Shown: in pieces, positions 4,166 through 22,037 of the stretch | Position numbering within the stretch: the stretch's first letter is position 1 | How the letters are laid out: every line of letters starts with the position of its first letter | Position numbers and translations under genes: made by a program | The notes under the pieces: generated by a model | Seen by the model: only the letters and a program-made list of their open reading frames with translations | What the model was told of the DNA's origin: nothing | Databases searched by the model: none | Source of the DNA: an uncultured Hyphomicrobiales bacterium | GTDB taxonomy: Bacteria > Bacteroidota > Ignavibacteria > Kapaibacteriales > UBA2268 | NCBI GenBank assembly: GCA_964539225.1 | Contig: CAZIIZ010000001.1 | Coordinates: forward strand, 1 to 35,486 | Direction: 5' to 3' | DNA: 35,486 nucleotides

Positions 4166-4203
4166 TCCCTTCTAATTTGTTAAAGCGTAAATATTAAAAA
4201 ATT

Positions 4204-4277: not shown

Positions 4278-4575
4278 AAATATTAACACAATAGGAAGAA
4301 ATAATTATATAGTAATAATAAATTAACAATGGTGTGTTAATGTTAATATTGTGTAAGTGATTTATCAGTAGTGAATAATATGTGGAAAACTAATAAATTT
4401 GTATATTATATGGAACGAATATGTAGAATTATATAATATAAATTGAAAATAACTAGTGGCATGTTGATGGAATATAACAAATTATAGATATTTATTATAC
4501 CAAATGATATTACAATGAATTATACAAATATTGCAAACAGGTATTAGATACGCTAATAAACATTGGAAACGGATA

Positions 4576-6084: not shown

Positions 6085-6331
6085 CGTACTATTTCGATGA
6101 ATTATTTACCAATAATAAGAATAATTACTGAATGCAGTATTATTTCCTCCAATATACTTTGGAGTATTGTTTAAACATTGAACTTGTACATTGAAATAAT
6201 TATTAATGAAAATAGTATCTGTGAGCAGTAGCATCCGTAAATTATTTTGATAATAAAATAATAGAATAACTGGTATATATATAGTTATCCAAAGTTTGCA
6301 ATTATCAGATGCTTTAAAAACACGGATTAAA

Positions 6332-6413
6332 TTCCGGCATTCTCTTTATCCAATCCCATTCTTTAATGGTTGAATGGGATAGTCCTGTCCTTGATTAAGG
6401 AAGAATGCCGGAA
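6332..6413 (+). promoter_or_regulatory. Nested hairpin / long-spacer inverted repeat upstream of the YfiR-like gene and MCP
   Basis: Perfect 12-bp outer arms TTCCGGCATTCT (6332-6343) / AGAATGCCGGAA (6402-6413) enclose perfect 9-bp inner arms ATCCCATTC (6353-6361) / GAATGGGAT (6372-6380). No T-tract follows. The ATG at 6405 used by the ORF track lies inside the right arm. Confidence 0.4.
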
Positions 6414-6458
6414 GTTATATTGAAAATATTATTAACAATATTAATATGGAAAAATCAA

Positions 6459-6962
6459 ATGAAAAAAACGATTATAACTCTAGTGTTTGTATTAATTACA
6501 ATTTGTAATTATGATGGTTTTGCACAAAAAGAATCTTCTGCTAGCGTCGCTGCTGCTTTAACATTGAAATTGGTTGGATTTAATTCTAAGTTAAGTGGTG
6601 GAATAAAAATATATGTTGTAGGAAATGATGCTTTAGCTAACGAAATGAAAAAAGGAATTGGTAAACCCATAGGTAAGGCGACATTGGAATCTGTTGATGG
6701 TGGAAATGATATTCCATCAGGTAAATACCAAGTAATTGTTTGTGGTTCAACCGCAAAGGTGAGTGCCGTCAGTAAATATGCAAAATCTAACAAAATTCTT
6801 AGTATTACTAATATTCCGAGTTTGCTGTCAAAAGGGATTTCATTAGGGATTGGGGTTGGAGATGATAATAAACCCAAAATAATGCTAAATTTAACTCAAT
6901 CAAACGAAGAAGGTATTGATTGGAATCCTGCAATCATGAAAGTTGCTGAAACTACAAAATAA
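6459..6962 (+). CDS. YfiR/DUF4154-like periplasmic protein
   Basis: Start chosen at MKKTIITLVFVLITICNYDGFAQ (signal peptide) rather than the track start at 6405. The body follows the DUF4154 pattern as I recall it: IKIYVVGND...ILSITNIPSLLSKGISLGIGV...KPKIMLNLTQSNEEGIDWNPAIMKVA. The stop lies 32 nt before the MCP start. Confidence 0.55.
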   Translation: MKKTIITLVFVLITICNYDGFAQKESSASVAAALTLKLVGFNSKLSGGIKIYVVGNDALANEMKKGIGKPIGKATLESVDGGNDIPSGKYQVIVCGSTAKVSAVSKYAKSNKILSITNIPSLLSKGISLGIGVGDDNKPKIMLNLTQSNEEGIDWNPAIMKVAETTK

Positions 6963-6994
6963 CCGATTTAACTATTTTATGCGTGGATTAATAA

Positions 6995-9900
6995 ATGTCT
7001 ATTAAAACAAAAATATTATTATTATTAGCTGGAATTTCGTTATCTTTTTCATTAATAATAGCTATCTATTCTCCTAATCAATCTGAAAAATTGGCAAAAT
7101 CAATGTTGATTAAGGATGCCGAGTTTATTTCAAATTTATTGGCGGAAAATTTAGCACTAGGTATGCAGACAAAAGATTTTGATAGTGGTACTGCTTTAGA
7201 ACAAGCACTACAAATAATCAGAGGCGATTCTACTCAAAAAGATAAAATTGAAACTATTTACAATGTTCAAATATTTGACGCTAATCAGGAATTTGTCAAA
7301 TCATTGATTAAAAATCAAAATCCAAGTAAAATAAACAACAAATTCTCTAAACTGCTTTTTAGCGAAAATGATGAACACATTATTGCTTCTTTGCCAATGA
7401 AAGATCAAACTAAAAATACTTTAGGGTATCTACAAATTTATTTTTCTAAAAAACATTTAACCTCCGAAACGAACAAGTCGCAAATATTTATGCTTATTAT
7501 GGCATTAATTATTTTGCTTGTAAGTCTAGGAGTAGGTTATTATATAGTTAATTCTATTGTAAGTTCTATCAAACAAATTATCCAAGCTGCAGAAAGTGTG
7601 TCTTTAGGTGATTTGAATGCCGTAATTGATATTCATTCTAAAGATGAAACAAAACTATTGGGCAATTCACTTGCTAAAACGATTGCCACATTAAAAGAAT
7701 TAATTTCTGAGATTCAATTCATTAGTGAAGCTAATGCAAATGGTCATTTAGATAAGCGAGGCGATGCTTCGAAATTCCAAGGAGCATACTATGAAATAAT
7801 TGCCGGAATCAATGCGTCGATGAATTCAGTAATTTCTCCACTAAATGTTGCAGCTGAATATATCGACAGAATTGCTAAGGGCGACATTCCGCTGAAAATT
7901 GTAGATGAATATAAGGGCGATTTTAATGGCATTAAAAATAATATTAATCAATGTATTGATAGCCTAAACGGATTAATTAAGTCTATGTTATCCACTACTG
8001 AATTACAAAAAGCCGGCGACATAGACGCATTCTCTGATGAAATGAAGTTTACAGGAGTATATCGTGAATTAATTAATGGTTATAATGTCGGAATGCAAGT
8101 TCACATTAATGCACTAATGCATATACTTAATTTACTTAATGAATATGCTAATGGGGATTTAACCAATGAAATGTTTATCGCACCTGGTAAACAGATAATC
8201 GCTACAGAGATAATTAATAAACTACGGCAAAACATATTGGCTTTAAGTGAAGATGCTAGTATGCTTTCAAATTCAGCAATGAAGGGTAGATTAGATACGA
8301 GAGTTGATGCTGCAAAACATCAAGGAGTTTACGGAAAAATCATTGAAGGAATGAATACTACCCTAAGCAATGTTGTTGGGTTCTTTGAAGCAATTCCAAC
8401 GCCTATACAATTTATGGATAAAGATTTTAAAATACAGTATATCAATAACACCGGTAGTCAATTATTAGGACTTTCGAAAGAGCAACTTAAAACGAAAACC
8501 TGTGCGGAATTATGGAAAACAAAAAAATGTGCTACTAAGGAATGTCCATGTTATATATCTATGGATAAAAATCATACATTTACTTGCACAAATGAATGTA
8601 TGGTGGGCAATGATAACTTAGATATATTCTGTGCAGCCGCACCTTTACTCAACGAAGAAGGCAATGTAATAGGCTCATTTGAATTCGTTATGGATCAAAC
8701 TGAAATTTCGAAGGCTGCGAGAAACGCATCAATGATATCTGAATACCAATCTAAGCAAGCACAAAAACTTACTAAATCATTAGGACAATTATCAAAAGGT
8801 GATTTAAGTTTCGAATTGGAAATTGATGAACCTGATAATACTACTCAAGAAGTATTTGAAGTATTCTCAGGGATAGTTGATAGTATTAATCAATCGAAAG
8901 CAGCAATAATTGCATTAACTACCGATGCGAATATGCTTTCGGAAGCTACAGTTGAAGGAAGGTTAGATATTCGTGCTAATGTGAATAAGCATAACGGCGA
9001 TTATCGAAAAATAGTTGAAGGTGTAAATCATACACTCGATGCAGTAATTCGTCCATTGAATGTAGCGGCTGAATATATAGATAGAATTGCTAAAGGTGAT
9101 ATACCGCCTAAAATTATCGACCATTACAATGGTGATTTTAATGGAATTAAAAATAATTTAAATCAGTGTATAGATGCAATAGCACAATTAGTTGATGACG
9201 CATCGATGCTTTCAAATTATGCGATAGAGGGCAATTTGGATAATCGAGCTGACGAGCAAAAGCATAACGGAGACTTCAGGAAATTAGTTGCTGAAATGAA
9301 TCATTTAATGAACGCTATTGCCGAACCTATAGGAGAAACCTCCACAATATTAGCTGGAATGTCGGTCAATGATTTTGAAATTCGCTATCAATCTGAATAC
9401 AAAGGAGTTTGGCAAGAAATGCGAAAATCTACAGAATTAGCTCAAAGCCGTGTCAATAGCTTTATCAAAATTATTACCAATATTAGCAATGGAGACATTA
9501 GTGATTTAGAACCGTTAAAAACATCTGGTAAACGTAGTGAGAATGATAAATTAGTCCCGGCCGGAATTCGATTAATGGAAGCTATCCAAGGGGTAATTAA
9601 TGTAATGATTGCTAATATTAGTAAACAAAAAGCCGGCGATATCGAAGCATTTGCTGATGCTAGTAAATTTCCTGGAGAATACTCTAAACTTATAGCAGGC
9701 TATAACGAAGGTATGCAAATCCATATAAATACTATTCTCGAAATATTGAATTTGTTAGATGAATATGCCAATGGAGATTTGTCAAATAAATTACCAATAT
9801 TACCAGGCAAACAAATTATTGCAACTGAAAGAGTAAACAAGCTTCGTCAAAATGTCTTGAATTTAATCACAGACTCTAATATGCTTTCTACTGCCGCAGT

Positions 9901-11227
9901 CCAAGGCAAGCTTGATACTCGTGCAGATGCCAGTGAACACCAAGGCGATTTTCGAAAGATTATCGAAGGTGTAAATCATACGCTCGATGCAATTATTCAT
10001 CCTTTGAATGTTTCGGCTGAATATATGGATAGAATTGCTAAAGGCGATATTCCTCCAAAGATAAATGAGCAGTATAGTGGAGATTTTAATGAAATTAAAA
10101 ATAATCTTAATCAGTGTATTGATTCTATCAATTTATTGATAATTGATGCTAATGGATTAGCAGAAGCGGCTATAAATGGCGATACTACTAAGCGTGCAGA
10201 TATTTCTAAGCATAATGGAGATTATCGAAAGATTATCCAAGGTTTTAATAATACATTGGACGCTACGACAGCACCTATCACAGAAGCCGTAAATATAATG
10301 GAACTTATGGCTCAGGGTGATATGTCGCATCTGATGGAAGGAGACTTTAAAGGAAACCATGCAGTACTAAAACAAACATTAAATTCTACTTTATTCTCAA
10401 TTAACCAATTACTACAACAAGTGAATGATACTGTCGCCGAGGTATTAAATGGTTCAATGCAGGTAGTAGAAAGCTCCCATAAGTTAAGCGGAGGAGCATC
10501 TGAACAAGCCGCAGCTATAGAAGAAATGTCAAGCTCTATGATGCAAATTGCTTCACAGACTAAGCAAAATGCTAATAATGCAAGGAATGCGAATTCTTTG
10601 GCTGATAATTCACAAAAAGCGAGTGAACGAGGATTTAGTGAAATGCAACAATTGCAAATTGCAATGAGCGAAATTAATGAGTCCAGTAAAAATATCGCAA
10701 AAATTATTAAAGTAATAGATGAAATTGCTTTTCAGACAAATTTATTAGCTTTAAATGCAGCGGTCGAAGCGGCAAGAGCCGGAGTTCACGGGCAAGGATT
10801 TGCAGTAGTTGCAGAAGAAGTACGTAATTTAGCTCGAAGAAGTGCAGAAGCCGCAAAAGAGACAGCTGTTTTAATTGAAGGATCTATCAAAAGGGTTGAT
10901 AATGGTACTATGCTGTCTGAAAAAACTGCAACCGTATTGAAAGAGATTCGGGAGCAATCCACAAGTGTTGCAGAATTAATTAAAGAAATTGCTATCGCTT
11001 CTAACGAACAAGCCAATGGCATAAATCAAATAGAAATTGGATTTATGCAAATTGACAAAGTAACCCAACAAAACACAGCAGGATCTGAAAAAAGTGCGTC
11101 TATTGCTGAAGAATTAGCAGAGCAAGCAAAGATGGTTGAAGAAATATTATCAGGATTCGTTTTGAATAAAACTGAACAACAAAACTTAATTCTAAAAGGT
11201 AGGACTTCGTATTATCTTAATAGATAA
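6995..11227 (+). CDS. Giant methyl-accepting chemotaxis protein (2 TM, HAMP, multiple duplicated helical modules, Cys-rich PAS, MCP signalling domain)
   Basis: 1410-aa ORF. TM1 is aa ~7-25, followed by a ~135-aa external loop, then TM2 at aa ~163-187 and HAMP-like [32 protein letters not shown]. The C-terminal MA domain (nt ~10412-11164) carries the canonical hairpin [49 protein letters not shown]. Confidence 0.92.
7838..7960 (+). repeat. Intragenic coding repeat Z, copy 1 ([41 protein letters not shown])
   Basis: aa 282-322 of the MCP. Near-identical peptide and clearly similar nucleotides at 9053-9175 and 10001-10123. Confidence 0.9.
8006..8245 (+). repeat. Intragenic coding repeat Y, copy 1 ([80 protein letters not shown])
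   Basis: aa 338-417 of the MCP. An 80-aa module duplicated at aa 878-957. Confidence 0.9.
9053..9175 (+). repeat. Intragenic coding repeat Z, copy 2 ([41 protein letters not shown])
   Basis: aa 687-727 of the MCP; see copy 1. Confidence 0.9.
9626..9865 (+). repeat. Intragenic coding repeat Y, copy 2 ([80 protein letters not shown])
   Basis: aa 878-957 of the MCP; see copy 1. Confidence 0.9.
10001..10123 (+). repeat. Intragenic coding repeat Z, copy 3 ([41 protein letters not shown])
   Basis: aa 1003-1043 of the MCP; see copy 1. Confidence 0.9.
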
Positions 11228-11322
11228 GCTCGATTAGCGAATAGGAAGAAATTCATAATATTTTATTCAGTTGATTATGTAAATAAAAGTAAATGGAATT
11301 ATTATTATATTTGAGATAAGCG

Positions 11323-11694
11323 ATGATAAGTAAAAATATGGTATTGGCTTCAAAATGTATTTTGAAGACTGTATGGCAAAGATACGAAGTGTATATTGAT
11401 CGAATAGAATTTAGTACAGAACTCAGTAAATTGGTGATTCCATTTGAAAAAATAAAAGATGTTGCTTTAATTGAAACAGAATTAAAGGGAACATATCAAG
11501 GCATAATTCAATTGAATCAATTTGTCGTTCCTCGCAACATCGAATGGGAGAATTATCCTGAATATATCATTGTAGATAAAGATGGAAAATATGTTAAAGC
11601 AATAGTATATACTCCAGAAAGTACAAAGGCGTTTAATCAAGTAGTGGAGGAACAATTAAAAGAATATAGGCATCAAACAATAATTATTGCTTGA
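11323..11694 (+). CDS. Small cytoplasmic protein, tentatively bacterial PH-like; paralog of 19646..20002
   Basis: 123-aa ORF with no TM segment or signal peptide. The pattern W..Y.VY.DR.EF....KL.IP...I resembles bPH-type domains. Clear similarity to the ORF at 19646..20002 (shared SK..K..W..Y..Y.DR.E.....KL.IP and Y....TP.....F.....EQL). Confidence 0.6.
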   Translation: MISKNMVLASKCILKTVWQRYEVYIDRIEFSTELSKLVIPFEKIKDVALIETELKGTYQGIIQLNQFVVPRNIEWENYPEYIIVDKDGKYVKAIVYTPESTKAFNQVVEEQLKEYRHQTIIIA

Positions 11695-11715
11695 TTAGGC
11701 TTTAACAAAATATTG

Positions 11716-11805
11716 CTCGGATGAATTCTTATACAATTAATAATAAATACAAATATTGCGATTTAAGTTATGCATATCCCTTAAATTGGACCTAGTTCAT
11801 CCGAG
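11716..11805 (+). terminator. Long hairpin just after the small-protein gene (possible terminator of the YfiR-like/MCP unit)
   Basis: Perfect 10-bp arms CTCGGATGAA (11716-11725) / TTCATCCGAG (11796-11805) enclose a 7-bp inner hairpin ATTTAAG (11761-11767) / CTTAAAT (11780-11786). It is followed by TATTTTG. The 70-nt spacer is atypical for an intrinsic terminator. Confidence 0.3.
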
Positions 11806-11845
11806 TATTTTGATATCACGTATATTCAACATATTAATAATATTT

Positions 11846-11914
11846 CAAGTGGGTATTTTCGTTATCATTATATAATGATATTATAGCATCACCCCGTACG
11901 GATGTACCCACTTG
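11846..11914. promoter_or_regulatory. Nested inverted repeat with a Fur-box-like perfect 18-bp palindrome upstream of the TonB-receptor genes
   Basis: Outer arms CAAGTGGGTA (11846-11855) / TACCCACTTG (11905-11914). The inner perfect palindrome TATCATTATATAATGATA (11863-11880) contains ATAATGATA / TATCATTAT, the core of the classical Fur consensus GATAATGATAATCATTATC. Confidence 0.4.
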
Positions 11915-11964
11915 TGTTTAATAGAAAATATCGAGGGAATCATAATACTATTCGGGTGAAAAAA

Positions 11965-11997
11965 ATATAAATAAACATGTTGTTAGTTTATTTATAT
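11965..11997. promoter_or_regulatory. Perfect 12-bp-stem hairpin / palindromic site just upstream of the methyltransferase-like ORF
   Basis: ATATAAATAAAC (11965-11976) / GTTTATTTATAT (11986-11997) with a 9-nt loop. No T-tract follows. Confidence 0.25.
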
Positions 11998-12089
11998 CGC
12001 AACAACACTTGAAAAACAAATTTCATCCGAATAGTAATTTTGATAAAATATTTAATTGTTCAATAAAGAATACATATAGTTTAAATCGA

Positions 12090-12650
12090 ATGAAACATAA
12101 TATTATCAAAAATAATGATTGGAATGTGCCTAGTAATTTGCGTACTGCTTTGGCTAAGGTCTATATCCCTAAAAATTCATTTGTATTAAATATTGGTAGT
12201 CGCAATATAGATTCTATATTAAACATGGTAAAGTATTACCACGATGCTCGTATTTATGCTGTTGATGCAGATGCTGTTTCTTTAAATCAGCTGAGGAAAA
12301 AAATTGATAATGCAAAATTGTCGCATCGAATATTTACCCTGCTATCATCAGAGCGTGAAATAAATTTTCTTAATACTCAATTTGATTTAATTTTAATAGA
12401 AGGGATTGCCAATTTGAAAGGATTTGAGAAGGGAATAGACGTAGCGAATAAATTGCTAAAAGAGCGTGGCGTGTTGATAATGCGTTGTGAAAATAATTAT
12501 CATCTTGAGAATATGAAAATGCTTCGAAAAAATAACTATTTTCTATTAAATTATTTACTATTAGATATGGTCGAAGTACAAAATGACTGTGGAATTAGCA
12601 AAACGAATTGCAACTCAAATAGATTAGTTTACTATGTGGTGTCAAAATAA
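12090..12650 (+). CDS. Class I methyltransferase-fold protein with degenerate SAM-binding motif
   Basis: Fold-like order: VLNIGSRNIDS (motif I position, Gly-rich loop mostly lost), IYAVDADAVSL (post-I acidic), FDLILIEGI (motif II-like), KERGVLIMR. The start is uncertain: the ORF track uses TTG 12009; the first ATG is at 12090. Confidence 0.45.
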   Translation: MKHNIIKNNDWNVPSNLRTALAKVYIPKNSFVLNIGSRNIDSILNMVKYYHDARIYAVDADAVSLNQLRKKIDNAKLSHRIFTLLSSEREINFLNTQFDLILIEGIANLKGFEKGIDVANKLLKERGVLIMRCENNYHLENMKMLRKNNYFLLNYLLLDMVEVQNDCGISKTNCNSNRLVYYVVSK

Positions 12651-12682
12651 GAAAATATTATACAATTTATATTAGGGAATGT

Positions 12683-14692
12683 ATGAAAAAGTATTTACAA
12701 AAAATCGGCAGAACTGCAATTGCTACTGCTCTTGCTTTATCAATTTATTCTGGAGCTTTTGCACAAGATACAAAAGATTTATTAGATATGTCTTTAGAAG
12801 AAATAATGAATATGCAAATTAATGTAGCATCCGGATCTAAGGCTCTTACGCAAAGAGAGTCACCGGGAATAGTCTCGGTTGTAACCGAAGATGAGATACG
12901 AAAATCTGGTGCAAGAGATTTGATTGACGTTTTAGAATTAGTACCGGGTATTACATTTAATGTTGATGTCTCTAATGCGGTCGGAATATCAATGCGTGGT
13001 AATTGGGCTCATGAAGGAAAAGTGTTGCTTCTGTTGGATGGACAGGAGTTTAATGACTTACATTATGCCGCTAATCAATTCGGAAATCATTTCCCCGTTT
13101 CAGCTATTAAAAGGATTGAAATTATTAGAGGTCCGGGATCTGCAATCTATGGTGGTGCTGCGGAACTTGGAGTAATTAACGTGATTACCAAAGCTGGGGA
13201 AGATATCGATGGGATTGCTGTTTCTCAATACTATGGTCAAATGAAAGATGATTTCGGCAGAAAGAATACGACCATAATGGGAGGGAAAAAAGATAGTAAT
13301 TTCGCTTTTAGCGTGTATGGATTTTTCGGAGAAGGCAACCGTAGTGATAAACCATATAAAGATATTTACGGGAATGGGACAACAAATAATAAAAATACTC
13401 TCAGACTCGATCCGAATATGATAAATATGTCCTTGAAATACAGTAATCTTAGTTTACGTTTTATTTATGATTACTTTCATACTACAACAATCGATAAATT
13501 TACAACTATTTTACCTCAGGCAATAGATAAAACTTATGGTTCATATTTGGGTGAAATAAAATATGAGATTAAACTCTCTGATAATTTTTCTATTACTCCA
13601 AGATTTAACTATGTATTCCAAGAACCTTGGAAGGCATTAGATACCAATAACTATAGTTACGCTCAATCTACGAGATACAAAGGAAATATTGCTTTGAATT
13701 ATGCATTTGACTTAAATGCTGACACGAAAGAAAAAGTAGATATTTCTGCCGGTGCTGAATTCTATAAAGACCACACGAAAATTCCAGATGTAGCTCAAAT
13801 GGGCACTTTTACTAATGGCAAAGATTATTGCGAATATGATAATACAGCTTTATTCTTACAAGCTTTAGTTTCCACTCGTATCGCTAATTTTACGATAGGC
13901 GGTAGATATGATAAGCAAAGCGATGCCGGTGGAGCTTTTGCACCGAGAATTGGTATTACAAAAGTAATCGGGGATTTTCACACAAAATTATTGTATAGTC
14001 AGTCATTTCGTTCACCGGTTACATTTAATTTCGAATATAAATTAGAGAACAAATTAGACCCTGAGAAAACAAATGTTCTTGAAATGGAATTTGGATATAA
14101 GGCTACTGATAATTTATTACTCACAGCGAATTGCTATTATCTGACTATTGATAAAACCATTGTTTATAAAGTATTGCCAGACGGTTCAGAAGGATATATA
14201 AACGCCGGCAAAACCGGTACTCTGGGTATGGAATTTGAGAGTAAATATCTAAATGATTGGGGAACGGTAAATTTAAACTATTCTTTCAATACTGCTCACG
14301 GAAAGAATGAAATAAATGATTATAAAGTACCAGAAAACGATAACGTACTTTTAGGAATGCCTCAGCACAAGGTTACACTCAATAGTAGTATTAATATAGC
14401 AAGAGGATTTTCTGTGAATCCATCAATAGTCTTTATGAGTGAAAGAAATTATGTCTCTGCTTTGGATCAAGCCAATAATCAAATATATAGTGCCGGCAAA
14501 GCTCAATTGCAGATAAATCTATTTTTCAACTATGATGATTTCATCAAAAAAGGTTTGAATGTAGGCTTTGGTGCATATAATATTACTAATCAAGATATTT
14601 ATTATTATCAACCATATTCAGGGAATCACGCAAAATTGCCTGGAGCATCTACGGAATTTGTTCTAAGAGCTTCTTACAATTTTGGTATTTAA
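12683..14692 (+). CDS. TonB-dependent receptor 1 (669 aa)
   Basis: Signal peptide ..SGAFA/QD. Plug motifs ESPGIVSVVTEDEIRKSGARDLIDVLELVPGI and IKRIEIIRGPGSAIYGGAAELGVINVITK, followed by a long beta-barrel-like region. AGGGAA RBS. Paralog of 17447..19546. Confidence 0.9.
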   Translation: MKKYLQKIGRTAIATALALSIYSGAFAQDTKDLLDMSLEEIMNMQINVASGSKALTQRESPGIVSVVTEDEIRKSGARDLIDVLELVPGITFNVDVSNAVGISMRGNWAHEGKVLLLLDGQEFNDLHYAANQFGNHFPVSAIKRIEIIRGPGSAIYGGAAELGVINVITKAGEDIDGIAVSQYYGQMKDDFGRKNTTIMGGKKDSNFAFSVYGFFGEGNRSDKPYKDIYGNGTTNNKNTLRLDPNMINMSLKYSNLSLRFIYDYFHTTTIDKFTTILPQAIDKTYGSYLGEIKYEIKLSDNFSITPRFNYVFQEPWKALDTNNYSYAQSTRYKGNIALNYAFDLNADTKEKVDISAGAEFYKDHTKIPDVAQMGTFTNGKDYCEYDNTALFLQALVSTRIANFTIGGRYDKQSDAGGAFAPRIGITKVIGDFHTKLLYSQSFRSPVTFNFEYKLENKLDPEKTNVLEMEFGYKATDNLLLTANCYYLTIDKTIVYKVLPDGSEGYINAGKTGTLGMEFESKYLNDWGTVNLNYSFNTAHGKNEINDYKVPENDNVLLGMPQHKVTLNSSINIARGFSVNPSIVFMSERNYVSALDQANNQIYSAGKAQLQINLFFNYDDFIKKGLNVGFGAYNITNQDIYYYQPYSGNHAKLPGASTEFVLRASYNFGI

Positions 14693-14841
14693 TTAACATT
14701 TTGACAATTATTAAATGAACGCACAGATTAATGGATTCGAATTATACAATCCATATCAATTTATATGATAGTTTGTTTGGTATATGAGCAATATACTGAA
14801 TAAGAATACTAATTAATTCGTTATTACATTAAGAGGGGATT

Positions 14842-17277
14842 ATGAAAAAATATTTACAAACGCTCGGCAAGACAGCAATTATTATGGCTCTTGCATTAAC
14901 AATTAATTCGGAAGCTTTTGCTCAGGATTCTAAGAATTTACTTGATTTGTCGTTAGAAGAACTGATGAATATTGAAGTGGATATTGGCGGACGCGGAGGC
15001 GAAAGAACAGTATTTAATTCCCCTGTACCAATTGATGTAATTACAGCAGCCGAAATTAAGAACACCGGATTGACTGATTTAACATCGGTAATGCAAAGGC
15101 TTATTCCGGCTTTTAATAGTCCAAGACCGTCAATAACTGACGGTACTGATCACATTCAACCATTCACTTTAAGAGGATTATCTTCTGATCAAGTTTTGGT
15201 ACTAATTAATGGCAAGAGGAAGCATAATTCGGCTTTGGTACATATTAATAACAGTATTGGTCGTGGCTCTACCAGCAATGATTTGAATACTATACCCGTG
15301 GAATCAATTGAGCGAATTGAAATTCTTCGTGATGGTGCGGCAGCTCAATACGGATCAGATGCAATTGCAGGAATTGTTAATATTGTTTTAAAAACGAAAC
15401 CAGATAATTCTTCAAATCTGCAATACAAAACCACAAATGAAGGCGACGGAAACACCTATACATTTTCGCATAATTATGGTTACGAGAATAGTAAAAAAGA
15501 TTATTTCAATCTTACTGCTGAATTTAGGGATCGAGATTATACCAATCGTTCTATAGCTTTACAGGATATTGATGCGGGCGGATTGGATAAAGATATTGTA
15601 GGGAAACAAATTTATCGTCAAGGCGATGCGGCTGAACGTGATATTTTGTTGGTATATAATTATTCTAAAGATGCTAATGATGCAACTTTATATTCATTCG
15701 GATATTTGAATAATAGATACGGTGAGGGTGCCGGATATTATAGAAAACCTTCTGAAGCTAGAACTTTGGTTGCTGTGTATCCTCAAGGATTTTTGCCATT
15801 AATTAAGCCGAAAATATTTGATGGAGCTGTTACTGCAGGGGTAAAAGCAAAATTAAAAGGTTGGGATGCAGATATTAGTGTGAATTACGGAAAAAACAGA
15901 ATCGAATATAATGTTGATAATAGTATCAATAGTTCGTTAGGTCCGACCAGTCCTCGCTCGTTCTATTGCGGAGCATTACAATTTCAACAAACATTACTAA
16001 ACGCTGATTTCTTTAAAGCATTCGATTTCCTTACCAAAAATCCTCTGAATTTGGGTGTAGGATTCGAATATAGAATGGAAAATTTCTCAATTGAAAAAGG
16101 CGAAGAAGCCTCGTATATTACTGGGACTTATTCGGATTCTGTAGGCGGTGTGTTAAGAAAATATCCAGGCGGTGCTCAAGTATTCCCAGGATTTCAACCG
16201 ATTAATGAAACGGATAAATCCAAAAATAATTTTTCAATTTATGCAGATTTAGAAAATAAATTGCTCGATAATTTGTTAATCGGATTAGCAGGGCGATACG
16301 AGAATTTTAGTGATTTTGGAAAAACAGTAAATGGAAAATTTTCATTCAGATATGAACCAATTGAAAAATTAGTAGTTCGTGCTTCAACAAGTACAGGATT
16401 TAAAGCCCCTACACTAGAACAATCCTATTTTACTGCGACATCAACCAATTCTGTAGCGGGAGTTCCGTATCAAATTGGAACATTTTCAGTAGAGCATCCA
16501 TTGGCTAAATTACTCGGTGCCCAACCGTTAAAACCTGAAAAATCGTTCCACATTAGTGGTGGAATCGCAACTCAATTAATAGATAACCTGTCTATTTCGG
16601 TTGATTATTATTATACTCATATTACAGACAGAATTGTGCTGTCCGGTAATTTTCTATTGAATAACTCTTCGGATTATGTAGTCTCTTTACTTAATTCTTA
16701 CAAAGTAGGTGGAGCAAGATTCTTCACGAATGCTGTCGATACCAAAACATCGGGTTTAGACTTAGTCGCAAAGTATAATGTTGATTTTAAGAATGCGGGA
16801 CTTGTGCAATTGTCTGCCGGTGTAAATTATAGCGAAACTAAAATAGATGGGAATATCAAAGTACCAGCACAAATAAGTGATGCAAAGACCAAGGCGATTT
16901 TCTTTGATAGAATTGAAGCTGCCAGAATGGAAACTATGCAACCTAAGCTAAATTTGCAATTCGGAGTAGATTACAAAATCGGAGATTTCAAAACAAATAT
17001 TAAAGTTATTAAATATGGCGATATTAAAGTAGTTCAAGACGTACTGAAAACAGAATTAGATCAGACTTATGCAGGCAAAGTTATTGTTGATTTGAATATT
17101 GACTATCAAATTTTTAGTAATTTCTCAGTTAACGTTGGTGGGCATAATATTTTGAATACTTATCCTGATAAAGTAATGACCGGAGTGGCAAATTACAAAA
17201 TTGTTCCTTATACTGTATTCTCTCCTTTTGGATTTAATGGAGCAGATTATTATGCAGGAATTAAAGTGAATTTGTAA
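14842..17277 (+). CDS. TonB-dependent receptor 2 (811 aa, different plug/barrel subfamily)
   Basis: Same leader as receptors 1 and 3, then FNSPVPIDVITAAEIKNTGLTDL, FTLRGLSSDQVLVLINGKRKHN and IERIEILRDGAAAQYGSDAIAGIVNIVLK, followed by a long barrel. GAGGGG RBS. Confidence 0.9.
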   Translation: MKKYLQTLGKTAIIMALALTINSEAFAQDSKNLLDLSLEELMNIEVDIGGRGGERTVFNSPVPIDVITAAEIKNTGLTDLTSVMQRLIPAFNSPRPSITDGTDHIQPFTLRGLSSDQVLVLINGKRKHNSALVHINNSIGRGSTSNDLNTIPVESIERIEILRDGAAAQYGSDAIAGIVNIVLKTKPDNSSNLQYKTTNEGDGNTYTFSHNYGYENSKKDYFNLTAEFRDRDYTNRSIALQDIDAGGLDKDIVGKQIYRQGDAAERDILLVYNYSKDANDATLYSFGYLNNRYGEGAGYYRKPSEARTLVAVYPQGFLPLIKPKIFDGAVTAGVKAKLKGWDADISVNYGKNRIEYNVDNSINSSLGPTSPRSFYCGALQFQQTLLNADFFKAFDFLTKNPLNLGVGFEYRMENFSIEKGEEASYITGTYSDSVGGVLRKYPGGAQVFPGFQPINETDKSKNNFSIYADLENKLLDNLLIGLAGRYENFSDFGKTVNGKFSFRYEPIEKLVVRASTSTGFKAPTLEQSYFTATSTNSVAGVPYQIGTFSVEHPLAKLLGAQPLKPEKSFHISGGIATQLIDNLSISVDYYYTHITDRIVLSGNFLLNNSSDYVVSLLNSYKVGGARFFTNAVDTKTSGLDLVAKYNVDFKNAGLVQLSAGVNYSETKIDGNIKVPAQISDAKTKAIFFDRIEAARMETMQPKLNLQFGVDYKIGDFKTNIKVIKYGDIKVVQDVLKTELDQTYAGKVIVDLNIDYQIFSNFSVNVGGHNILNTYPDKVMTGVANYKIVPYTVFSPFGFNGADYYAGIKVNL

Positions 17278-17338
17278 ACAAAAAATTGGACGAAACATAA
17301 ATTAAAGGATGACTGTAGGAACTAATTAATATATATCC

Positions 17339-17411
17339 GAGGGGAATTGTTAATAGATACTCAAGCTTAAGAAGTAAATAGCATACATCCAATATTCCCC
17401 TCTGTTTTTTT
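17339..17411 (+). terminator. Hairpin plus T-tract after TonB-dependent receptor 2
   Basis: GAGGGGAAT (17339-17347) / ATTCCCCTC (17394-17402), followed by TGTTTTTTT (17403-17411). The loop is long (46 nt). Confidence 0.4.
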
Positions 17412-17446
17412 AAAAATTTATTATTTTAAAACAAGTGAGGTAATCT

Positions 17447-19546
17447 ATGAAAAAGTTATTACAAAAACTCGGCAAGATTGCAATTGCAGCAGCTTTTGTT
17501 TTATCACTTCATTCCGGAGCGTTTGCACAGGACACTAAGGATTTACTTGATATGTCCCTAGAAGATTTAATGAATATGGAAGTGAGTGTTGCTTCGGGCA
17601 AAGCACAGAAAATGGATGAAGCTCCTTCAATTGTTTCTGTTGTTACTAAAGCAGACTTCGAGAAATACGGAGCTAGAGACCTTGCTGATATTTTACGGAA
17701 TGTCCCAGGCTTCGAATTTGGTGCAGATTCGTATGAACTTGCTGGAGCCAGTTTCAGAGGGATTTGGGCTTATGAGGGGAAAATTGCATTTTTGATGAAT
17801 GGTGTTAATATCACAGAATATGCTACCGGAAATTTCAACATGGTTGGGAATATTCCTTCTATGATGATTGAGCGAGTTGAGATTATTCGCGGTCCTGGTT
17901 CCGCTTTGTATGGAGGATATGCAGAAGTGGCTGTAATTAATATTATTACAAATTCCGCAGCTGCATTGAACAATGCTGCTGTGCTTTATGCCAATGGAGG
18001 CAAGATGGGCGATGCTTATTCGGGGAATACATGCTTCAGCATGGGTTTAGCAAATGAGAAAAAAACTGTAGAAATAGCAGCACACGTCGGAGTTGGCTAT
18101 AATTTATTGTCAGATAGAGATTATACTCCATTTATCCAAGTTAAGGATCCTATTTCCGAAGTTTCTTCTCCGGCAGTAGGGAAGATGGGGGACGAAAGTG
18201 GTTATAGAAAAACAATGTATTCTGTGATTGACGGGAAAATTGGTGATTTCAAGTTTGATTTTGTCAGGAACTCAGTAACTTATGCTGCTCAGAATAATGG
18301 TTACGTTATTCCTCAAGTCAATGGGTTAAACGGCGAGGACAGGAATACTAAAATGCTGGGTATATCTATGTCGTATAAGTATTCATTAAGCGATAACCTA
18401 TGGATTAAACCCTTGTTCGAATATACAGAATCAAATCTGTTAGCTTCAACAGTTAATCCAGATATGGCAATTGAAAGTCCTTTTATATACGAAGGTACCT
18501 TAATGAATAGATACATGGGACAAATCGTAATGGAATGGGACAATAAACTGTTAATCGGTGGTGGTGCTATGCGAAACAACATTTATGCTACTGACAAATA
18601 TGGAAATGATGGGTTAGAAATCGGTCCCAATCCGCAGGATACTGCAAGAGAACATTACGTGATGGGATATTACGGAATTCTTCAATATGCAGATAATTTT
18701 GGTAATTTGGGTTTTACAATAGGTGCAAGAGGTGAATTTACCGAATGGGGAAACGCATTTGCCCCACGCCTTGGTTTAACTTATATACTTGATAAACTAA
18801 ATTTCAAGTTATTATTTGGCAGCTCATTCAGAGTGCCTACTTTGTTCCAGGCATACACTCGGCTTTGGGCTTGGGACACCAAAGATGCCAATGGTAAAGC
18901 AATTGATTTAAAACCTGAAACTTGTAATTCCTTTGAATTCGAAACAGGCTATAAATTTAGTAGCAATCTAAAAGCTAAAATGAATATATTCTACGTATCA
19001 ATTAGCAATCCTTTGGTGTACCAAGGTTCGTATGTAAACTATGGAAAAATTAATTCTATTGGTATCGAAGCAGAAGTAGAATTATTATACGAGAATTATG
19101 GTACTAAGCTTAATATCTCCTATTCCAAACCATCAGGAGAAACTAGCGATAATTTTCTGACTGATGATAAAAACGGTTTTTTAGGAATGACTCCGATTAA
19201 AATTAACTGGTTCGGTCATTATACTTTCGGTAATTTAACGGCAGGAGCTTCGTTGACATTTGTATCTGAACGAAAAGGCATCTCTAAAGATTATGCCTTA
19301 TGGATGTGGGAAGGCGACAAGAACAAACCGAAACCAGCCGTTACTAATCAAACATTAGAAGCATTGATGCTACTCAATTTGAATCTATCGTACAAAAATT
19401 TAATTGATAAGGTTTTAGATGTGCAAGCGACTGTTTATAATGTGTTAGATGCAAAATATATGTTAATACAGCCATATTATGAATACCATGCACCACTACC
19501 GGCATTCGACAGACATGTCGTTGTAAACTTAGCGTTGCACATATAG
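17447..19546 (+). CDS. TonB-dependent receptor 3 (699 aa)
   Basis: Signal peptide ..SGAFA/QD. Plug motifs EAPSIVSVVTKADFEKYGARDLADILRNVPGF and IERVEIIRGPGSALYGGYAEVAVINIIT, followed by a barrel. GTGAGG RBS. Confidence 0.9.
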   Translation: MKKLLQKLGKIAIAAAFVLSLHSGAFAQDTKDLLDMSLEDLMNMEVSVASGKAQKMDEAPSIVSVVTKADFEKYGARDLADILRNVPGFEFGADSYELAGASFRGIWAYEGKIAFLMNGVNITEYATGNFNMVGNIPSMMIERVEIIRGPGSALYGGYAEVAVINIITNSAAALNNAAVLYANGGKMGDAYSGNTCFSMGLANEKKTVEIAAHVGVGYNLLSDRDYTPFIQVKDPISEVSSPAVGKMGDESGYRKTMYSVIDGKIGDFKFDFVRNSVTYAAQNNGYVIPQVNGLNGEDRNTKMLGISMSYKYSLSDNLWIKPLFEYTESNLLASTVNPDMAIESPFIYEGTLMNRYMGQIVMEWDNKLLIGGGAMRNNIYATDKYGNDGLEIGPNPQDTAREHYVMGYYGILQYADNFGNLGFTIGARGEFTEWGNAFAPRLGLTYILDKLNFKLLFGSSFRVPTLFQAYTRLWAWDTKDANGKAIDLKPETCNSFEFETGYKFSSNLKAKMNIFYVSISNPLVYQGSYVNYGKINSIGIEAEVELLYENYGTKLNISYSKPSGETSDNFLTDDKNGFLGMTPIKINWFGHYTFGNLTAGASLTFVSERKGISKDYALWMWEGDKNKPKPAVTNQTLEALMLLNLNLSYKNLIDKVLDVQATVYNVLDAKYMLIQPYYEYHAPLPAFDRHVVVNLALHI

Positions 19547-19645
19547 CGTTAAATTGATTGGAATTCTAATGAGTATGGAAATACAACATCGAAAGTAAGA
19601 ATTTAATAAAGAACTTTGTGCTTGATTATAAATTATGGACGTAAT

Positions 19646-20002
19646 ATGAACAAACAAATAGTATTTAATTCCAAGAGTGTGGATAAAGGATTTTGGTTAG
19701 AATATAGTATTTATGAAGATCGACTTGAACTTGTTTCTATGATTGGCAAGCTCATAATTCCTATGTCTTGTATCTCTTATATTGATTCTGATGATATCGA
19801 ACTTGAGAAAATTAGTACAGTAAGGTTAGTTCTGAAAAATTTTCGACTTTCCCCTATACTAGGATGGAACATCTTCGTTAAATATATAACAATTTATCCC
19901 AAAAGTAATTATGTTGAACATATACTAATTACTCCAGATAAACCTAAAATATTTTGTAATTTTATAGATGAACAACTTGACAATTTAGATTGGGTTGAAT
20001 AA
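19646..20002 (+). CDS. Small cytoplasmic protein, paralog of 11323..11694 (tentatively PH-like)
   Basis: Start placed at ATG 19646 (MNKQIVFNSKSV...); the ORF track begins at TTG 19616. It shares the W.EY.IY.DRLE...GKLIIP and ITPDKPKIF..FIDEQL blocks with the first copy. Confidence 0.6.
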   Translation: MNKQIVFNSKSVDKGFWLEYSIYEDRLELVSMIGKLIIPMSCISYIDSDDIELEKISTVRLVLKNFRLSPILGWNIFVKYITIYPKSNYVEHILITPDKPKIFCNFIDEQLDNLDWVE

Positions 20003-20027
20003 AACTCCTAAATGTGTTTTGAATTAA

Positions 20028-20121
20028 GCAATCCGTAAAATATAACGGGAACTAATCAATAATTGAATAAATCTATAAATTCAGTTGTGAATTAGTTAAA
20101 TTTTACGGATTGCATATTTTT
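20028..20121 (+). terminator. Long nested hairpin plus T-tract closing the receptor cluster
   Basis: Perfect 14-bp arms GCAATCCGTAAAAT (20028-20041) / ATTTTACGGATTGC (20100-20113), with inner AACTAAT / ATTAGTT pairing. TTTTT follows at 20117-20121. Confidence 0.45.
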
Positions 20122-20147
20122 AATAAAATAAATTGTAATAAGTCATA

Positions 20148-22037
20148 ATGAGCAAACAGTATTCCAGATTTATTAAATATATTCTAATATTAATACTAAG
20201 TGTCTTTGAAAGTGACGCTTTCGAGTTGCCAGACAGTTTGGTGCAACAAATCGAAGGAATTAGTGATAATGTTAAAGTTAAAATATTGCAAAATATTGCG
20301 TGGGAAAATAGAATATCTAACCCATTATATGCCTTAGAATGTACAAATATGTCGCTAATATATGCTGAAGAGCTATCAGACTACTATGCTATCGCCCAAG
20401 GCATAAATTATACAGGAGTAATCTATATGCACCAAAGCGTATATGATAAAGCGTATCAATATTTTCTTGAAGCAAAAGATATAGCTATTAAGCATAAGAT
20501 TAATCTTCAATTGGGATATTCATACTTAAATATGGGGAAGATTAAGCTTCTAAATATGGCTACAAACGATGCTCGCACATTGTTTCAATCTGCACAAACA
20601 ATTATGTATGCAATGAATGATATAAAAGGGATTTCTTATGTATATTCAAGATTAAGTGAACTATACAATAGTACTAAGCAGTTCGATTCGGCACTGTATT
20701 ATGCAAAAAAAACAATTCGAATTGCTGACGAGATAAGGGACGAAGAAATCCGTATACGCGGAAAATTTGAATTAGCTAATACTTATACTAATACCAGAAA
20801 TTATAACGAAGCCCTCGATATATATAAATCAATCTATAGCCAATCAGATAGGAGGTTGCAAATTGATATATTAATATCGAATGTGTATCTCAAATTAAAA
20901 ATGTATAATCAAGCAAATATCAGAGCAAATATTGCTTTCCAAACGGCAATGCTACAAAATAAATATCAAGAAATATTCGATATATTGCAAATACTTGTTG
21001 AAATTAATAGCAGTAATGGTGTATATTATCAAGCATTTAATTATAGTCGAATGCAATTACAGTATAAAGACAGTTTGTTTTCTGCGGAAAAGAAGAAGCA
21101 AATGTTAATGTTAGAGTATTCACAAAATATTCGACAAAAAGAATCAGAAAATATTATTTTAAAAAAATCATCCGCTTGGAAAACTCATATTATCCTTTTC
21201 TTTATATTATTTGTAATGGCTTTGGGGTATGCGATTAATTTACAAATTCGTAAAATTATGCACGAGAAAATAAACAATAAAAAACTATTGGAGCAAAATC
21301 AAATAATTGAGCATCAAACAAAAAAACTTCATCAAGAAATTATTAATAAGGATAAATTCTTTTCGATTATTGCTCACGATTTGAAAAATCCGATTGGTAA
21401 TTTCCGTGAGACTATAAAATTGTTATTTCACTCTTTTCGAGAATTTGATGAAGAGGAAAAGATGGAATTACTAAATATGCTTATGAAATCATCCGAAAAC
21501 ACTTATGAATTATTAGAAAATTTATTAGAATGGTCTCGTACCCAACATGGTCTTATTCAATATAATCCCGATAATTTTGATTTGCATTTGCTTGCTAGCA
21601 ACTGCGTAGAATTGTTGCAATTATCTGCTGAAACCAAAATGATTGCATTGAACAATACGATTAAAAAAGGTACAATAGTCAAAGCAGATGCAAATCTTGT
21701 AACAACAATATTAAGGAATATTGTTTCAAATGCAATTAAATTTACTCCGAACGGTGGCACTATTGAACTAAATGCCAAAAAAGAACCTTATCATTATATG
21801 ATTGCTGTTTCTGATACCGGCATCGGAATGAGTCAAGAAGTAGTGGACAAATTATTTAATATTGAGGAAAATGTTAGTAGAAAAGGAACTTGTGGCGAAT
21901 CGGGGACAGGCTTGGGTTTGCTATTGTGCAATGAATTTATTGAAAAGCATAATAGTAAAATCAATGTCAGCAGTGAAGTAGGCGTGGGGACAACATTTAG
22001 TTTCGCATTGGCTATATCACCGTATTATACAAAATAA
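20148..22037 (+). CDS. TPR-repeat sensor histidine kinase (extracytoplasmic TPR, 1 TM, HisKA, HATPase_c)
   Basis: 629 aa. Has an N-terminal signal/anchor, TPR-like repeats (A..YF.EA..IA, ALYYAKK, EALDIYK) and a TM segment (HIILFFILFVMALGYAINL). H-box FFSIIAHDLKNPIGN, N-box VSNAIKFTP, G-boxes SDTGIGM and GTGLGLLLC. Confidence 0.88.
   Translation: MSKQYSRFIKYILILILSVFESDAFELPDSLVQQIEGISDNVKVKILQNIAWENRISNPLYALECTNMSLIYAEELSDYYAIAQGINYTGVIYMHQSVYDKAYQYFLEAKDIAIKHKINLQLGYSYLNMGKIKLLNMATNDARTLFQSAQTIMYAMNDIKGISYVYSRLSELYNSTKQFDSALYYAKKTIRIADEIRDEEIRIRGKFELANTYTNTRNYNEALDIYKSIYSQSDRRLQIDILISNVYLKLKMYNQANIRANIAFQTAMLQNKYQEIFDILQILVEINSSNGVYYQAFNYSRMQLQYKDSLFSAEKKKQMLMLEYSQNIRQKESENIILKKSSAWKTHIILFFILFVMALGYAINLQIRKIMHEKINNKKLLEQNQIIEHQTKKLHQEIINKDKFFSIIAHDLKNPIGNFRETIKLLFHSFREFDEEEKMELLNMLMKSSENTYELLENLLEWSRTQHGLIQYNPDNFDLHLLASNCVELLQLSAETKMIALNNTIKKGTIVKADANLVTTILRNIVSNAIKFTPNGGTIELNAKKEPYHYMIAVSDTGIGMSQEVVDKLFNIEENVSRKGTCGESGTGLGLLLCNEFIEKHNSKINVSSEVGVGTTFSFALAISPYYTK

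Follow-up and report, generated by a model that had tools for sequence, protein, structure and literature searches.

The 35,486 nucleotides analysed here (the window; contig CAZIIZ010000001.1 of assembly GCA_964539225.1, forward strand, positions 1 to 35,486) are AT-rich, with about 31% G+C, and the contig comes from a metagenome assembly. At 6459-20002 the window carries genes for a secreted YfiR-like protein, a very large methyl-accepting chemotaxis protein (MCP) and three TonB-dependent receptors (TBDRs). Comparison of this neighbourhood across genomes shows that the YfiR-fold periplasmic protein and the CHASE8-like chemoreceptor are a conserved gene pair. It also shows that TBDRs of one subfamily, recognised by a short N-terminal tag, are a frequent third partner across phyla and output types. 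By analogy with YfiR and YfiN of Pseudomonas aeruginosa we lean, with moderate confidence, towards reading the core as a two-gene periplasmic partner-switch of the YfiR-YfiN type. The chemoreceptor would be its transducer and, more speculatively, the TBDRs its outer-membrane input.

Chemoreceptors with periplasmic sensors detect only what reaches the periplasm. To our knowledge, it is not established how, or even whether, bacteria navigate towards the scarce or bulky substrates that TBDRs import. The pairing of a YfiR-type regulator with a chemoreceptor in several phyla, often joined by tag-bearing TBDRs, is a concrete and testable candidate for such a link.

Conservation of the gene neighbourhood

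An alignment of the YfiR-like protein was scanned against one genome per species, giving 33 distinct loci. The loci were selected by similarity to this YfiR-like subfamily and the census covers only this subfamily. The census used open reading frames (ORFs) and BLAST with the window's own domains as probes, and was cross-checked with precomputed Pfam annotation. About ten phylum-level labels are represented: Kapabacteria, Melioribacteraceae, KSB1, Fibrobacterota/Chitinispirillaceae and Calditrichota, and further GN15, Zixibacteria, Marinimicrobia, Poribacteria and Holophagae/Acanthopleuribacter/Sulfidibacter.

An earlier note on this DNA, made from the letters alone, had proposed that the YfiR-like gene and the MCP gene belong together. 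The linkage is indeed conserved and not unique to one genome, as the YfiR-like gene is followed directly by an MCP gene in about 24 of the 33 species-level loci. In these the MCP is encoded on the same strand, carries the same sensor domain and starts after a gap of 3-136 nt. Two more loci have the MCP one gene off from the YfiR-like gene, and three loci from Calditrichota encode a hybrid histidine kinase that bears the same sensor domain. The remaining loci are one at a contig end and three with neither an MCP nor a kinase. The linkage is not confined to the Fibrobacterota-Chlorobi-Bacteroidota group, in which the note had suggested looking for it; it is also found in Acidobacteriota, Zixibacteria, KSB1 and others. 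One Marinimicrobia locus (L037:5907-16047) has the pair inside a run of five MCP genes. Among cultivable bacteria, the pair is present in Acanthopleuribacter pedis KCTC 12899 (L040) and Sulfidibacter corallicola M133 (L042).

In 16 of the 33 loci a TBDR gene is found only a few genes away from the YfiR-like gene, on either side of it and sometimes divergent. The exact order YfiR-like-MCP-TBDR-TBDR-TBDR recurs in two other genomes (L013 and L016), and L012 has YfiR-like-MCP-TBDR-TBDR. The core of the earlier proposal, a YfiR-like protein linked to a chemoreceptor, therefore stands in a narrower form, with TBDRs as the probable partner in the outer membrane; its extension to a module of eight genes does not (see below).

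The YfiR-like protein

The first gene of the block (6459..6962, + strand) encodes a YfiR-like protein (DUF4154) of 167 aa. Its signal peptide, MKKTIITLVFVLITICNYDGFA, is followed by QKE with predicted cleavage before the Q, and a similar hydrophobic leader is present in 24 of 24 aligned relatives. The protein is predicted to be secreted and hence periplasmic. The assignment to DUF4154/YfiR made in the earlier note holds at the profile level, with a match to Pfam PF13689 of 35 bits against a gathering cut-off of 24.9, aligning aa 65-181 of the 185-aa ORF to model positions 25-142 of 143. Among 5.8 billion proteins 70 homologues were found, nearly all carrying a precomputed PF13689 annotation; the named ones are from Melioribacteraceae, Calditrichota, KSB1 and Poribacteria. 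A tblastn search with the protein against plasmids gave no match.

Searching the PDB by sequence with the YfiR-like profile returned nothing, and it was the fold search that gave the relationship instead. In the AlphaFold (AF2) model, built from 24 sequences and with a predicted local distance difference test score (pLDDT) of 86.7, the YfiR fold is evident: the top 13 Foldseek matches in the PDB are all P. aeruginosa YfiR chains, YfiB-YfiR complexes included (TM-score 0.63-0.74, probability 1.0). The identity to YfiR in the structural alignment is about 18%. Next in rank come a Rhodothermus marinus protein, which binds substrate with a single domain, and binding proteins of the ABC type, one of them with bound L-Trp.

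Nine residues are invariant across the 24 relatives (L129, K138, I141, L143, N144, W155, P157, A158 and I159), and the invariant residues of the subfamily sit in a C-terminal block, KPKIxLNL...EGIDWNPAI(M/L)KVA. A low-probability hhalign alignment places this block on aa 138-167 of E. coli YfiR, which correspond, through the alignment of the E. coli and P. aeruginosa proteins, to aa 148-187 of P. aeruginosa YfiR. In the latter, F151, E163, I169 and Q187 are the proposed YfiN-binding surface (PMC3375315), and L166, I169, V176, P178 and L181 form a pocket into which F57 of YfiB fits and where vitamin B6 and L-Trp bind too (PMC4887326). P. aeruginosa F151, F162, L166, I169, V176, P178 and L181 become L129, I141, L145, S148, W155, P157 and M160 here. 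All seven positions are invariant or nearly so, although several residues differ in kind and the mapping goes through the low-probability hhalign alignment.

The same pocket could be taken to mean that the YfiR-like protein is a co-receptor. It would then be a small-molecule binder with half a periplasmic-binding-protein fold, which presents a TBDR-imported ligand to the MCP much as maltose-binding protein (MBP) does to Tar; the TBDRs would merely be the entry route of the attractant and nothing would be sequestered. The substrate-binding proteins that follow YfiR in the Foldseek ranking fit this, as do the binding of vitamin B6 and L-Trp by YfiR and the good conservation of the pocket equivalents L145, S148, W155, P157 and M160, which are among the best conserved residues. 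A gene order with importers would also suit an uptake-and-sense unit. However, YfiR binds these ligands with affinities in the ten-millimolar range (PMC4887326), there is no ligand to name here, and the tag that TBDRs share with two outer-membrane-type proteins that are not TBDRs is left unexplained. We consider a co-receptor unlikely, and regard the partner-switch as the better reading.

The chemoreceptor and its sensor domain

The MCP gene (6995..11227, + strand) encodes 1410 aa. Pfam, NCBIfam and transmembrane (TM) prediction give the order TM helix, CHASE8-like sensor, TM helix, HAMP, poly-HAMP, Cys-rich PAS, poly-HAMP and MCP signalling domain. The predicted topology has TM1 at aa 7-25, a periplasmic part at aa 26-163 and TM2 at aa 164-182, in agreement with the periplasmic loop of about 135 aa noted earlier. 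The Pfam matches are HAMP (PF00672, 68 bits), HAMP_2 in six stretches (440 bits), HAMP_N3 in two stretches and MCPsignal (PF00015, 163 bits). The last of these marks the signalling, or kinase-control, domain at aa 1201-1357 (10595..11065, + strand). No che genes lie within the window.

The periplasmic sensor domain (aa 26-163, about 138 aa; 7070..7483, + strand) has a single Cache/PAS (PDC) fold. In an AF2 model of aa 1-240 (pLDDT 93.1), a long helix at the N-terminus is accompanied by two short ones and a sheet of five strands, and Foldseek relates the model to the extracytoplasmic PAS/Cache domains of WalK (the best, TMq 0.73), KinD, CitA and DctB. Across 23 orthologous partners the best-conserved blocks are aa 44-68 and PMxDx6GYVxIxFSK (aa 134-152). 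The domain is rare, with 95 clusters in 1.84 billion representatives (phmmer/HMMER scan). A Pfam scan of 81 sensor-bearing representatives found MCPsignal in 76 and kinase domains in three.

In our reading the sensor is a divergent form of CHASE8, the sensor type of YfiN. This reading is based on colinear, sub-threshold Pfam matches and on hhalign alignments to three proteins whose own CHASE8 domains all pass the Pfam threshold. The sensor profile aligns to the CHASE8-HAMP kinase of a Pelobacter YfiR-TBDR operon (probability 95.5%, E 1.5e-8), to the CHASE8 of a Ralstonia GGDEF-EAL protein (E 0.001) and, end to end, to E. coli YfiN/DgcN. In the DgcN alignment the sensor segment LDDGAALxQTL stands opposite AAVVFADGPAATETL, which is the 'AAVVF' motif. 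This motif of YfiN is the YfiR-binding site proposed by Malone et al., and 10 of 20 YfiR-insensitive YfiN mutations map to the N-terminal end of its sensor domain (PMC3375315). By this analogy the sensor domain of the MCP is proposed to be the docking site for the YfiR-like protein.

A cytoplasmic PAS domain lies within the HAMP array (aa 462-570; 8378..8704, + strand; PAS_9/PAS_4 matches). Seven of its cysteines fall within 44 residues (8501-8632): C503, C512, C517, C519, C531, C535 and C546. Such a composition hints at a metal or Fe-S cofactor. No informative solved relative of this domain was found, and the 1216-aa Kapabacteria MCP orthologues have no PAS match.

The length of the MCP orthologues ranges from about 530 to 1410 aa. 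A repeat finder identified DNA repeats inside the window gene at 7700-7965, 8915-9180 and 9863-10128, and 71-nt units at 8972, 9245, 9920 and 10193, with 64-77% identity. These large repeats show that the giant size arose through tandem duplication of poly-HAMP blocks.

TonB-dependent receptors share an N-terminal tag

The three TBDR genes are all on the + strand. TBDR1 (12683..14692, 669 aa) has a Plug match of 74 bits, TBDR2 (14842..17277, 811 aa) one of 84 bits together with a barrel match of 128 bits, and TBDR3 (17447..19546, 699 aa) a Plug match of 71 bits. Plug is thus above threshold in three of three, and the barrel model in TBDR2 only. For TBDR1 and TBDR3 the length is as expected, and they align in part with the full-length NCBIfam models of BtuB and haemin receptors. 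The gene neighbourhood offers no hint of the substrates of these receptors.

Each receptor carries, right after its signal peptide, a version of the same tag: DLLDMSLEEIMNMQI in TBDR1 (aa 32-46, nt 12776-12820), NLLDLSLEELMNIEV in TBDR2 (nt 14935-14979) and DLLDMSLEDLMNMEV in TBDR3 (nt 17540-17584). The consensus is (Q/A)E(T/S)(D/E)DL(L/M)(D/E)(M/L)SL(D/E)(D/E)L(M/L)N(I/M)EV(T/S)xASK, in short DLLxMSLEELMNxEV. It is found directly after the signal peptide in 22 of 22 full-length TBDR ORFs from the non-redundant loci, the window's three included. Two further proteins encoded by YfiR-like genes' neighbours carry it without being TBDRs. One is a 343-aa outer-membrane barrel of the Phenol_MetA_deg type in Zixibacteria (L036:12473-13504), and the other is a 441-aa signal-peptide protein without a Pfam match in GN15 (L032:8471-9796). 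Since the tag moves between barrel types beside YfiR-like genes, it is probably more than a TonB box.

The 5' ends of the three window genes are also alike at the DNA level. A 161-nt stretch, which takes in 9 nt ahead of the gene and the parts encoding signal peptide and tag, is 71-79% identical between 12674-12834, 14833-14993 and 17438-17598. Elsewhere the three proteins share only 32-38% identity, so that gene conversion or strong constraint on the N-termini is suggested. Only about 29 residues separate the signal-peptide cleavage site from the Plug domain, and no STN domain was matched in the window TBDRs at E <= 0.01.

NCBIfam holds a pair of models, TOL_0243 for a YfiR-like periplasmic protein and TOL_0244 for a TonB-dependent receptor. 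Among the NCBIfam matches of the window TBDRs, the N-terminal part of TOL_0244 ranks first or near the top, and for TBDR1 it ranks first. All scores lie far below the cut-offs (TOL_0243, 16 against 125 bits; TOL_0244, 98, 53 and 70 against 645 bits), and the window proteins are distant relatives, not members, of these equivalogs.

A tblastn search with the consensus of the TBDR N-terminus led to annotated operons in Ralstonia and Pelobacter. In Ralstonia solanacearum, CJO94_19995-20005 on the megaplasmid (CP023017.1, L047:4782-9432) encode a TBDR, a DUF4154 protein and a CHASE8-GGDEF-EAL protein; the Ralstonia matches amount to 134 records. In Pelobacter propionicus, PPRO_RS18065-18075 on plasmid pPRO1 (L046:3804-7890) encode a YfiR-family protein, a CHASE8-HAMP kinase and a TBDR. 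The TBDRs of the two operons start with the tag versions DLTELPLEQLMQVQVTSASK (Ralstonia, L047:4782-5141) and LEDLLSMEISVASA (Pelobacter, L046:5884-6183). Adjacent genes overlap by 4 nt in both, so each is taken to be one operon. No published study of either operon was found in the searchable literature.

A possible mechanism

By analogy with YfiR and YfiN (PMC3375315, PMC4887326), we suggest that the YfiR-like protein uses the conserved hydrophobic face near its C-terminus to dock on the chemoreceptor's sensor, at the helix and loop in the N-terminal part of that domain. The predicted docking motif on the sensor is the conserved block at aa 44-68. Docking would hold the MCP in one signalling state, which the HAMP array would transmit to the kinase-control tip and thereby to CheA.

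The part played by the outer membrane is more speculative. The neighbouring TBDRs could replace YfiB as the outer-membrane input. The tag, which lies just before or over the position of the TonB box, would be freed upon loading of the receptor. It would then compete for the same face and capture the YfiR-like protein, so that the chemoreceptor is released; the N-terminal segment of YfiB competes in this way for YfiR. TBDR occupancy would in this way be relayed to CheA, and the cell would steer towards or away from substrates that enter only via TBDRs.

A wider and more tentative idea is that the tag is a docking peptide for YfiR-like proteins, defining a second widespread trans-envelope route that is distinct from FecA/FecR and has varied outputs; we hold this to be possible, though rather doubtful. 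If it were true, a loaded receptor would sequester the YfiR-like protein and so free a CHASE8-type transducer, and the outputs of this route may be chemotaxis in the window and in more than 20 lineages, cyclic di-GMP (c-di-GMP) in Ralstonia and a phosphorelay in Pelobacter and Calditrichota. With the MCP version, bacteria could swim towards substrates for which TBDRs are the sole way in.

Several observations weigh against the partner-switch and its outer-membrane input. First, homology of the sensor to the CHASE8 of YfiN itself is weak in direct comparison: Pfam CHASE8 is found in only 3 of 23 relatives, colinear but below threshold (best 17.5 bits against 27), and the alignment to DgcN has an E of 0.023 and a probability of 2%. 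Second, no cysteine is conserved in the alignment of 24 YfiR-like sequences, and the YfiR disulfides C71-C110 and C145-C152 are absent. Redox control of the YfiR type is therefore unlikely here, and sensitivity through two disulfides is a property of P. aeruginosa YfiR and not of the Pfam family. Third, at one locus (L003:7694-12626), where the YfiR-like protein is 59% identical to that of the window, the order is TBDR, YfiR-like, histidine kinase, and the periplasmic part of the kinase is a DUF4154 domain, not a Cache-type sensor. A DUF4154 sensor domain may thus be another partner through which YfiR-like proteins act. Fourth, the tag occupies the expected position of the TonB box, and it could be a mere family-specific TonB-box region. 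Finally, 17 of the 33 loci have no nearby TBDR, for example those in Acidobacteriota and Marinimicrobia and several in Melioribacteraceae; the YfiR-like/MCP pair can therefore work without an adjacent receptor.

The last point leads to an alternative in which the pair is self-contained. The YfiR-like protein and the MCP would sense the state of the envelope alone, and the TBDRs would be ordinary uptake neighbours, brought there by co-regulation or chance. Besides the loci without a TBDR, the varying number of TBDRs per locus (0-3) and their varying side and strand are as expected from this, and in the window hairpins and a 395-nt gap lie between the MCP and the TBDR genes. However, a gene family that makes up roughly 1% of genes, by our own estimate, would be expected next to the pair far less often than in the 16 of 33 loci observed. 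Moreover, every adjacent TBDR comes from the one tag-bearing subfamily, the TBDR, DUF4154 and transducer genes of Ralstonia and Pelobacter overlap by 4 nt, and the NCBIfam curators have defined a paired TBDR and YfiR-like family. A self-contained pair is in our view improbable.

If the partner-switch reading holds, what has hitherto been studied as a c-di-GMP and biofilm switch of proteobacterial pathogens would widen into a general periplasmic module. Motility or phosphorelays could be under the control of such a module, and TBDRs could stand in for YfiB as the outer-membrane input. The TBDR/DUF4154/GGDEF-EAL operon of Ralstonia offers a genetically tractable setting for the shared mechanism. 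Of the new leads, we consider the portable N-terminal tag, which accompanies YfiR-like genes, the strongest.

Organisation of the gene block

The block consists of eight co-directional ORFs, as the earlier note described it. The ORF list gives them, all on the + strand and with alternative starts where there are two, as 6405/6459-6962, 6995-11227, 11323-11694, 12009/12090-12650, 12683-14692, 14842-17277, 17447-19546 and 19616/19646-20002. Public gene calls on the same contig use the same starts for the first gene (6459) and the fourth (12090). Two of the gaps are tight, both 32 nt as had been stated: 6962 to 6995 between the YfiR-like gene and the MCP gene, and 12650 to 12683 between the methyltransferase-like gene and TBDR1. 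Because of these gaps, co-transcription is suggested for each of the two gene pairs.

All four hairpins that had been pointed out are present at their coordinates, and each folds better than dinucleotide shuffles, with z-scores calculated from the minimum free energy (MFE) against 200 shuffles. A long-stem hairpin upstream of the YfiR-like gene (6332..6413, + strand; MFE -35 kcal/mol, z = -5.8) probably ends the transcription unit of the upstream PAS kinase. The second (11716..11805, + strand; z = -3.9) lies in the 395-nt gap before the methyltransferase-like gene (11695-12089) and is likely a transcription-unit boundary. Between TBDR2 and TBDR3, a hairpin followed by U7 (17339..17411, + strand; z = -2.6, with 2 of 200 shuffles folding equally well) suggests a terminator-like boundary. 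At the end of the block stands a strong, terminator-like hairpin followed by a U run (20028..20121, + strand; MFE -31.5 kcal/mol, z = -8.6). Internal transcription-unit boundaries are suggested by the gap with its hairpin and by the terminator-like hairpin at 17339-17411, and the block is probably two or three transcription units.

Promoter searches add little to this. A scan for sigma-70 promoters found 81, against 72.7 +/- 9.1 in shuffles, and is uninformative on operon structure; terminator-like sites are barely enriched over shuffles. A search of the block for the Bacteroidota-type -7 motif TAnnTTTG found only two intergenic sites, at 11306-11313 (17 nt 5' of the first small protein gene) and 12035-12042 (55 nt 5' of the ATG of the methyltransferase-like gene). 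They may be internal promoters, but this is suggestive only. Rfam gave no match at E <= 1 in the region 5900-20400, and we therefore see no riboswitch ahead of the TBDR genes.

Three genes of the block encode neither a YfiR-like protein, an MCP nor a TBDR. Two of them encode small orphan proteins, one of 123 aa (11323..11694, + strand), without a Pfam match, and one of 118 aa (19646..20002, + strand, with an alternative TTG start at 19616). They are paralogues, as the earlier note's pairing of the two implied (BLASTP, 30% identity, E 1e-16). Its description of both as PH-like is not borne out at the profile threshold: the second matches bPH_5 below threshold (17 against 22.5 bits), and the first does not match at all. 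The third gene (12090..12650, + strand, with an alternative TTG start at 12009) encodes a protein of 186 aa that resembles S-adenosylmethionine (SAM) methyltransferases. Several methyltransferase models, Methyltransf_25 and Methyltransf_11 among them, match the same region with 19-24 bits, all just below threshold (23.7 against 27). PH-like and methyltransferase-fold are thus the weakest labels in the earlier note's description of the block.

The note had taken all eight genes for one signalling unit in which the receptor genes lie between those for the two small proteins. Co-directional genes, framing hairpins and the paralogy of the small proteins are in its favour. However, neither the small proteins nor the methyltransferase-like gene have a homologue in any of more than 40 related loci. 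This includes the closest, L011, whose YfiR-like protein is 71% identical, and the Kapabacteria loci run YfiR-like-MCP-TBDR x3 without any of the three. Among 5.8 billion proteins the first small protein has no homologue except itself. A module of all eight genes is thus very improbable, and the three genes are, by their distribution, lineage-specific passengers outside the conserved module.

Flanking genes

Signalling genes lie on both sides of the block. Upstream are a PAS histidine kinase (4531-6084) and a PAS-LuxR regulator (3278-4165, - strand). Downstream are two convergent TPR histidine kinases, 20148-22037 and 22051-24123 (- strand), with a shared 75-nt inverted repeat. None of the flanking signalling genes recurs beside the module in other genomes. 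Type IX secretion system (T9SS) sorting domains are also encoded nearby. Judged by its relatives, the low-G+C window would belong to an organism of the Fibrobacterota-Chlorobi-Bacteroidota type.

Further repeated sequences are seen elsewhere in the window. A 181-nt inverted repeat, 72% complementary, connects 497-677, upstream of an M1 peptidase gene, with 4019-4199, in the 5' part of the PAS-LuxR gene (minus strand), and it may be what is left of a gene start that was duplicated. Two genes for zinc-type alcohol dehydrogenases (26974-27888 and 32266-33198) are paralogous and lie 5.3 kb apart, with DNA segments of 77-79% identity at both ends.

Comparison with known systems

The closest characterised relatives are YfiBNR (with TpbB/DgcN; P. 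aeruginosa and E. coli) and HmsCDE of Yersinia. As in the window, a DUF4154 gene lies directly upstream of the gene for a transducer with two TM helices. The likeness to YfiBNR extends to a periplasmic PAS/Cache domain, here a putative divergent CHASE8, followed by HAMP in the transducer, probably to the C-terminal hydrophobic face of the YfiR-like protein and the N-terminal part of the sensor, both conserved, and to a gene for an outer-membrane protein in the same cluster. However, the output in the window is an MCP signalling domain behind a poly-HAMP/PAS array and not GGDEF, for which the MCP has no Pfam match. No gene for YfiB, a Pal/OmpA-like lipoprotein, is present among all ORFs of the window, and TBDRs are found in that place. 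The disulfide cysteines of YfiR are absent as well, and the identity to YfiR is low.

TonB-dependent transducers of the FecA-FecR-FecI type would follow the same logic as the one proposed here, in that a periplasmic N-terminal extension of the TBDR reports loading to a partner, which in turn controls a signalling protein of the cytoplasmic membrane. The resemblance would be one of function only. In FecA this extension is an STN/Secretin_N-type domain of about 80 aa ahead of the TonB box, whereas the window TBDRs have a tag of only about 15 residues. The FecA partner is an anti-sigma factor with an extracytoplasmic function (ECF) sigma factor as output, while in the window a soluble YfiR-like partner and a chemotaxis output are proposed.

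The cytoplasmic part of the MCP resembles the poly-HAMP chemoreceptors of the Aer2 type, in which HAMP arrays flank PAS ahead of the MCP signalling domain. The best NCBIfam match of the MCP is Vibrio Aer2, with 421 bits in five stretches against a cut-off of 1200. However, Aer2 is soluble and senses O2 via haem, while the window MCP is membrane-bound and has a periplasmic sensor and a Cys-rich PAS. WalK with YycH/YycI, and Tar with MBP, provide examples of a single extracytoplasmic PAS/Cache sensor that answers to an accessory protein and not just to free ligand, as proposed here. Their accessory proteins are unrelated to the YfiR-like protein, and there is no relationship at the sequence level.

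The Ralstonia and Pelobacter operons and the TOL_0243/TOL_0244 pair are like the window in their three components, the TBDR tag and the homologous sensor. The two operons differ in their output, GGDEF-EAL or a histidine kinase, and in a CHASE8 that passes the Pfam threshold. Full-text searching of the literature for DUF4154 with TBDRs, or for YfiR with chemoreceptors, found no study, and the sole trace of the TBDR pairing that we found is the names of these two NCBIfam models.

According to Malone et al. 2012 (PMC3375315), the core of YfiR and YfiN[PAS] is modular and widespread; its outputs are GGDEF, GGDEF-EAL, HPT and kinase domains, and YfiB is mostly absent. Their account names neither an MCP among the outputs nor a TBDR as partner. 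The YfiR-MCP pairing, of which the earlier note knew no characterised case, is accordingly not a new kind of system, as its core has already been called modular. The window combines a DUF4154/YfiR protein, an MCP and TBDRs. It is not YfiBNR proper, because it has neither GGDEF nor YfiB, and it is neither a FecA-type transducer nor a member of TOL_0243/0244. It is an uncharacterised version of the modular core formed by YfiR and YfiN, in which the output is an MCP and TBDRs take the place of YfiB.

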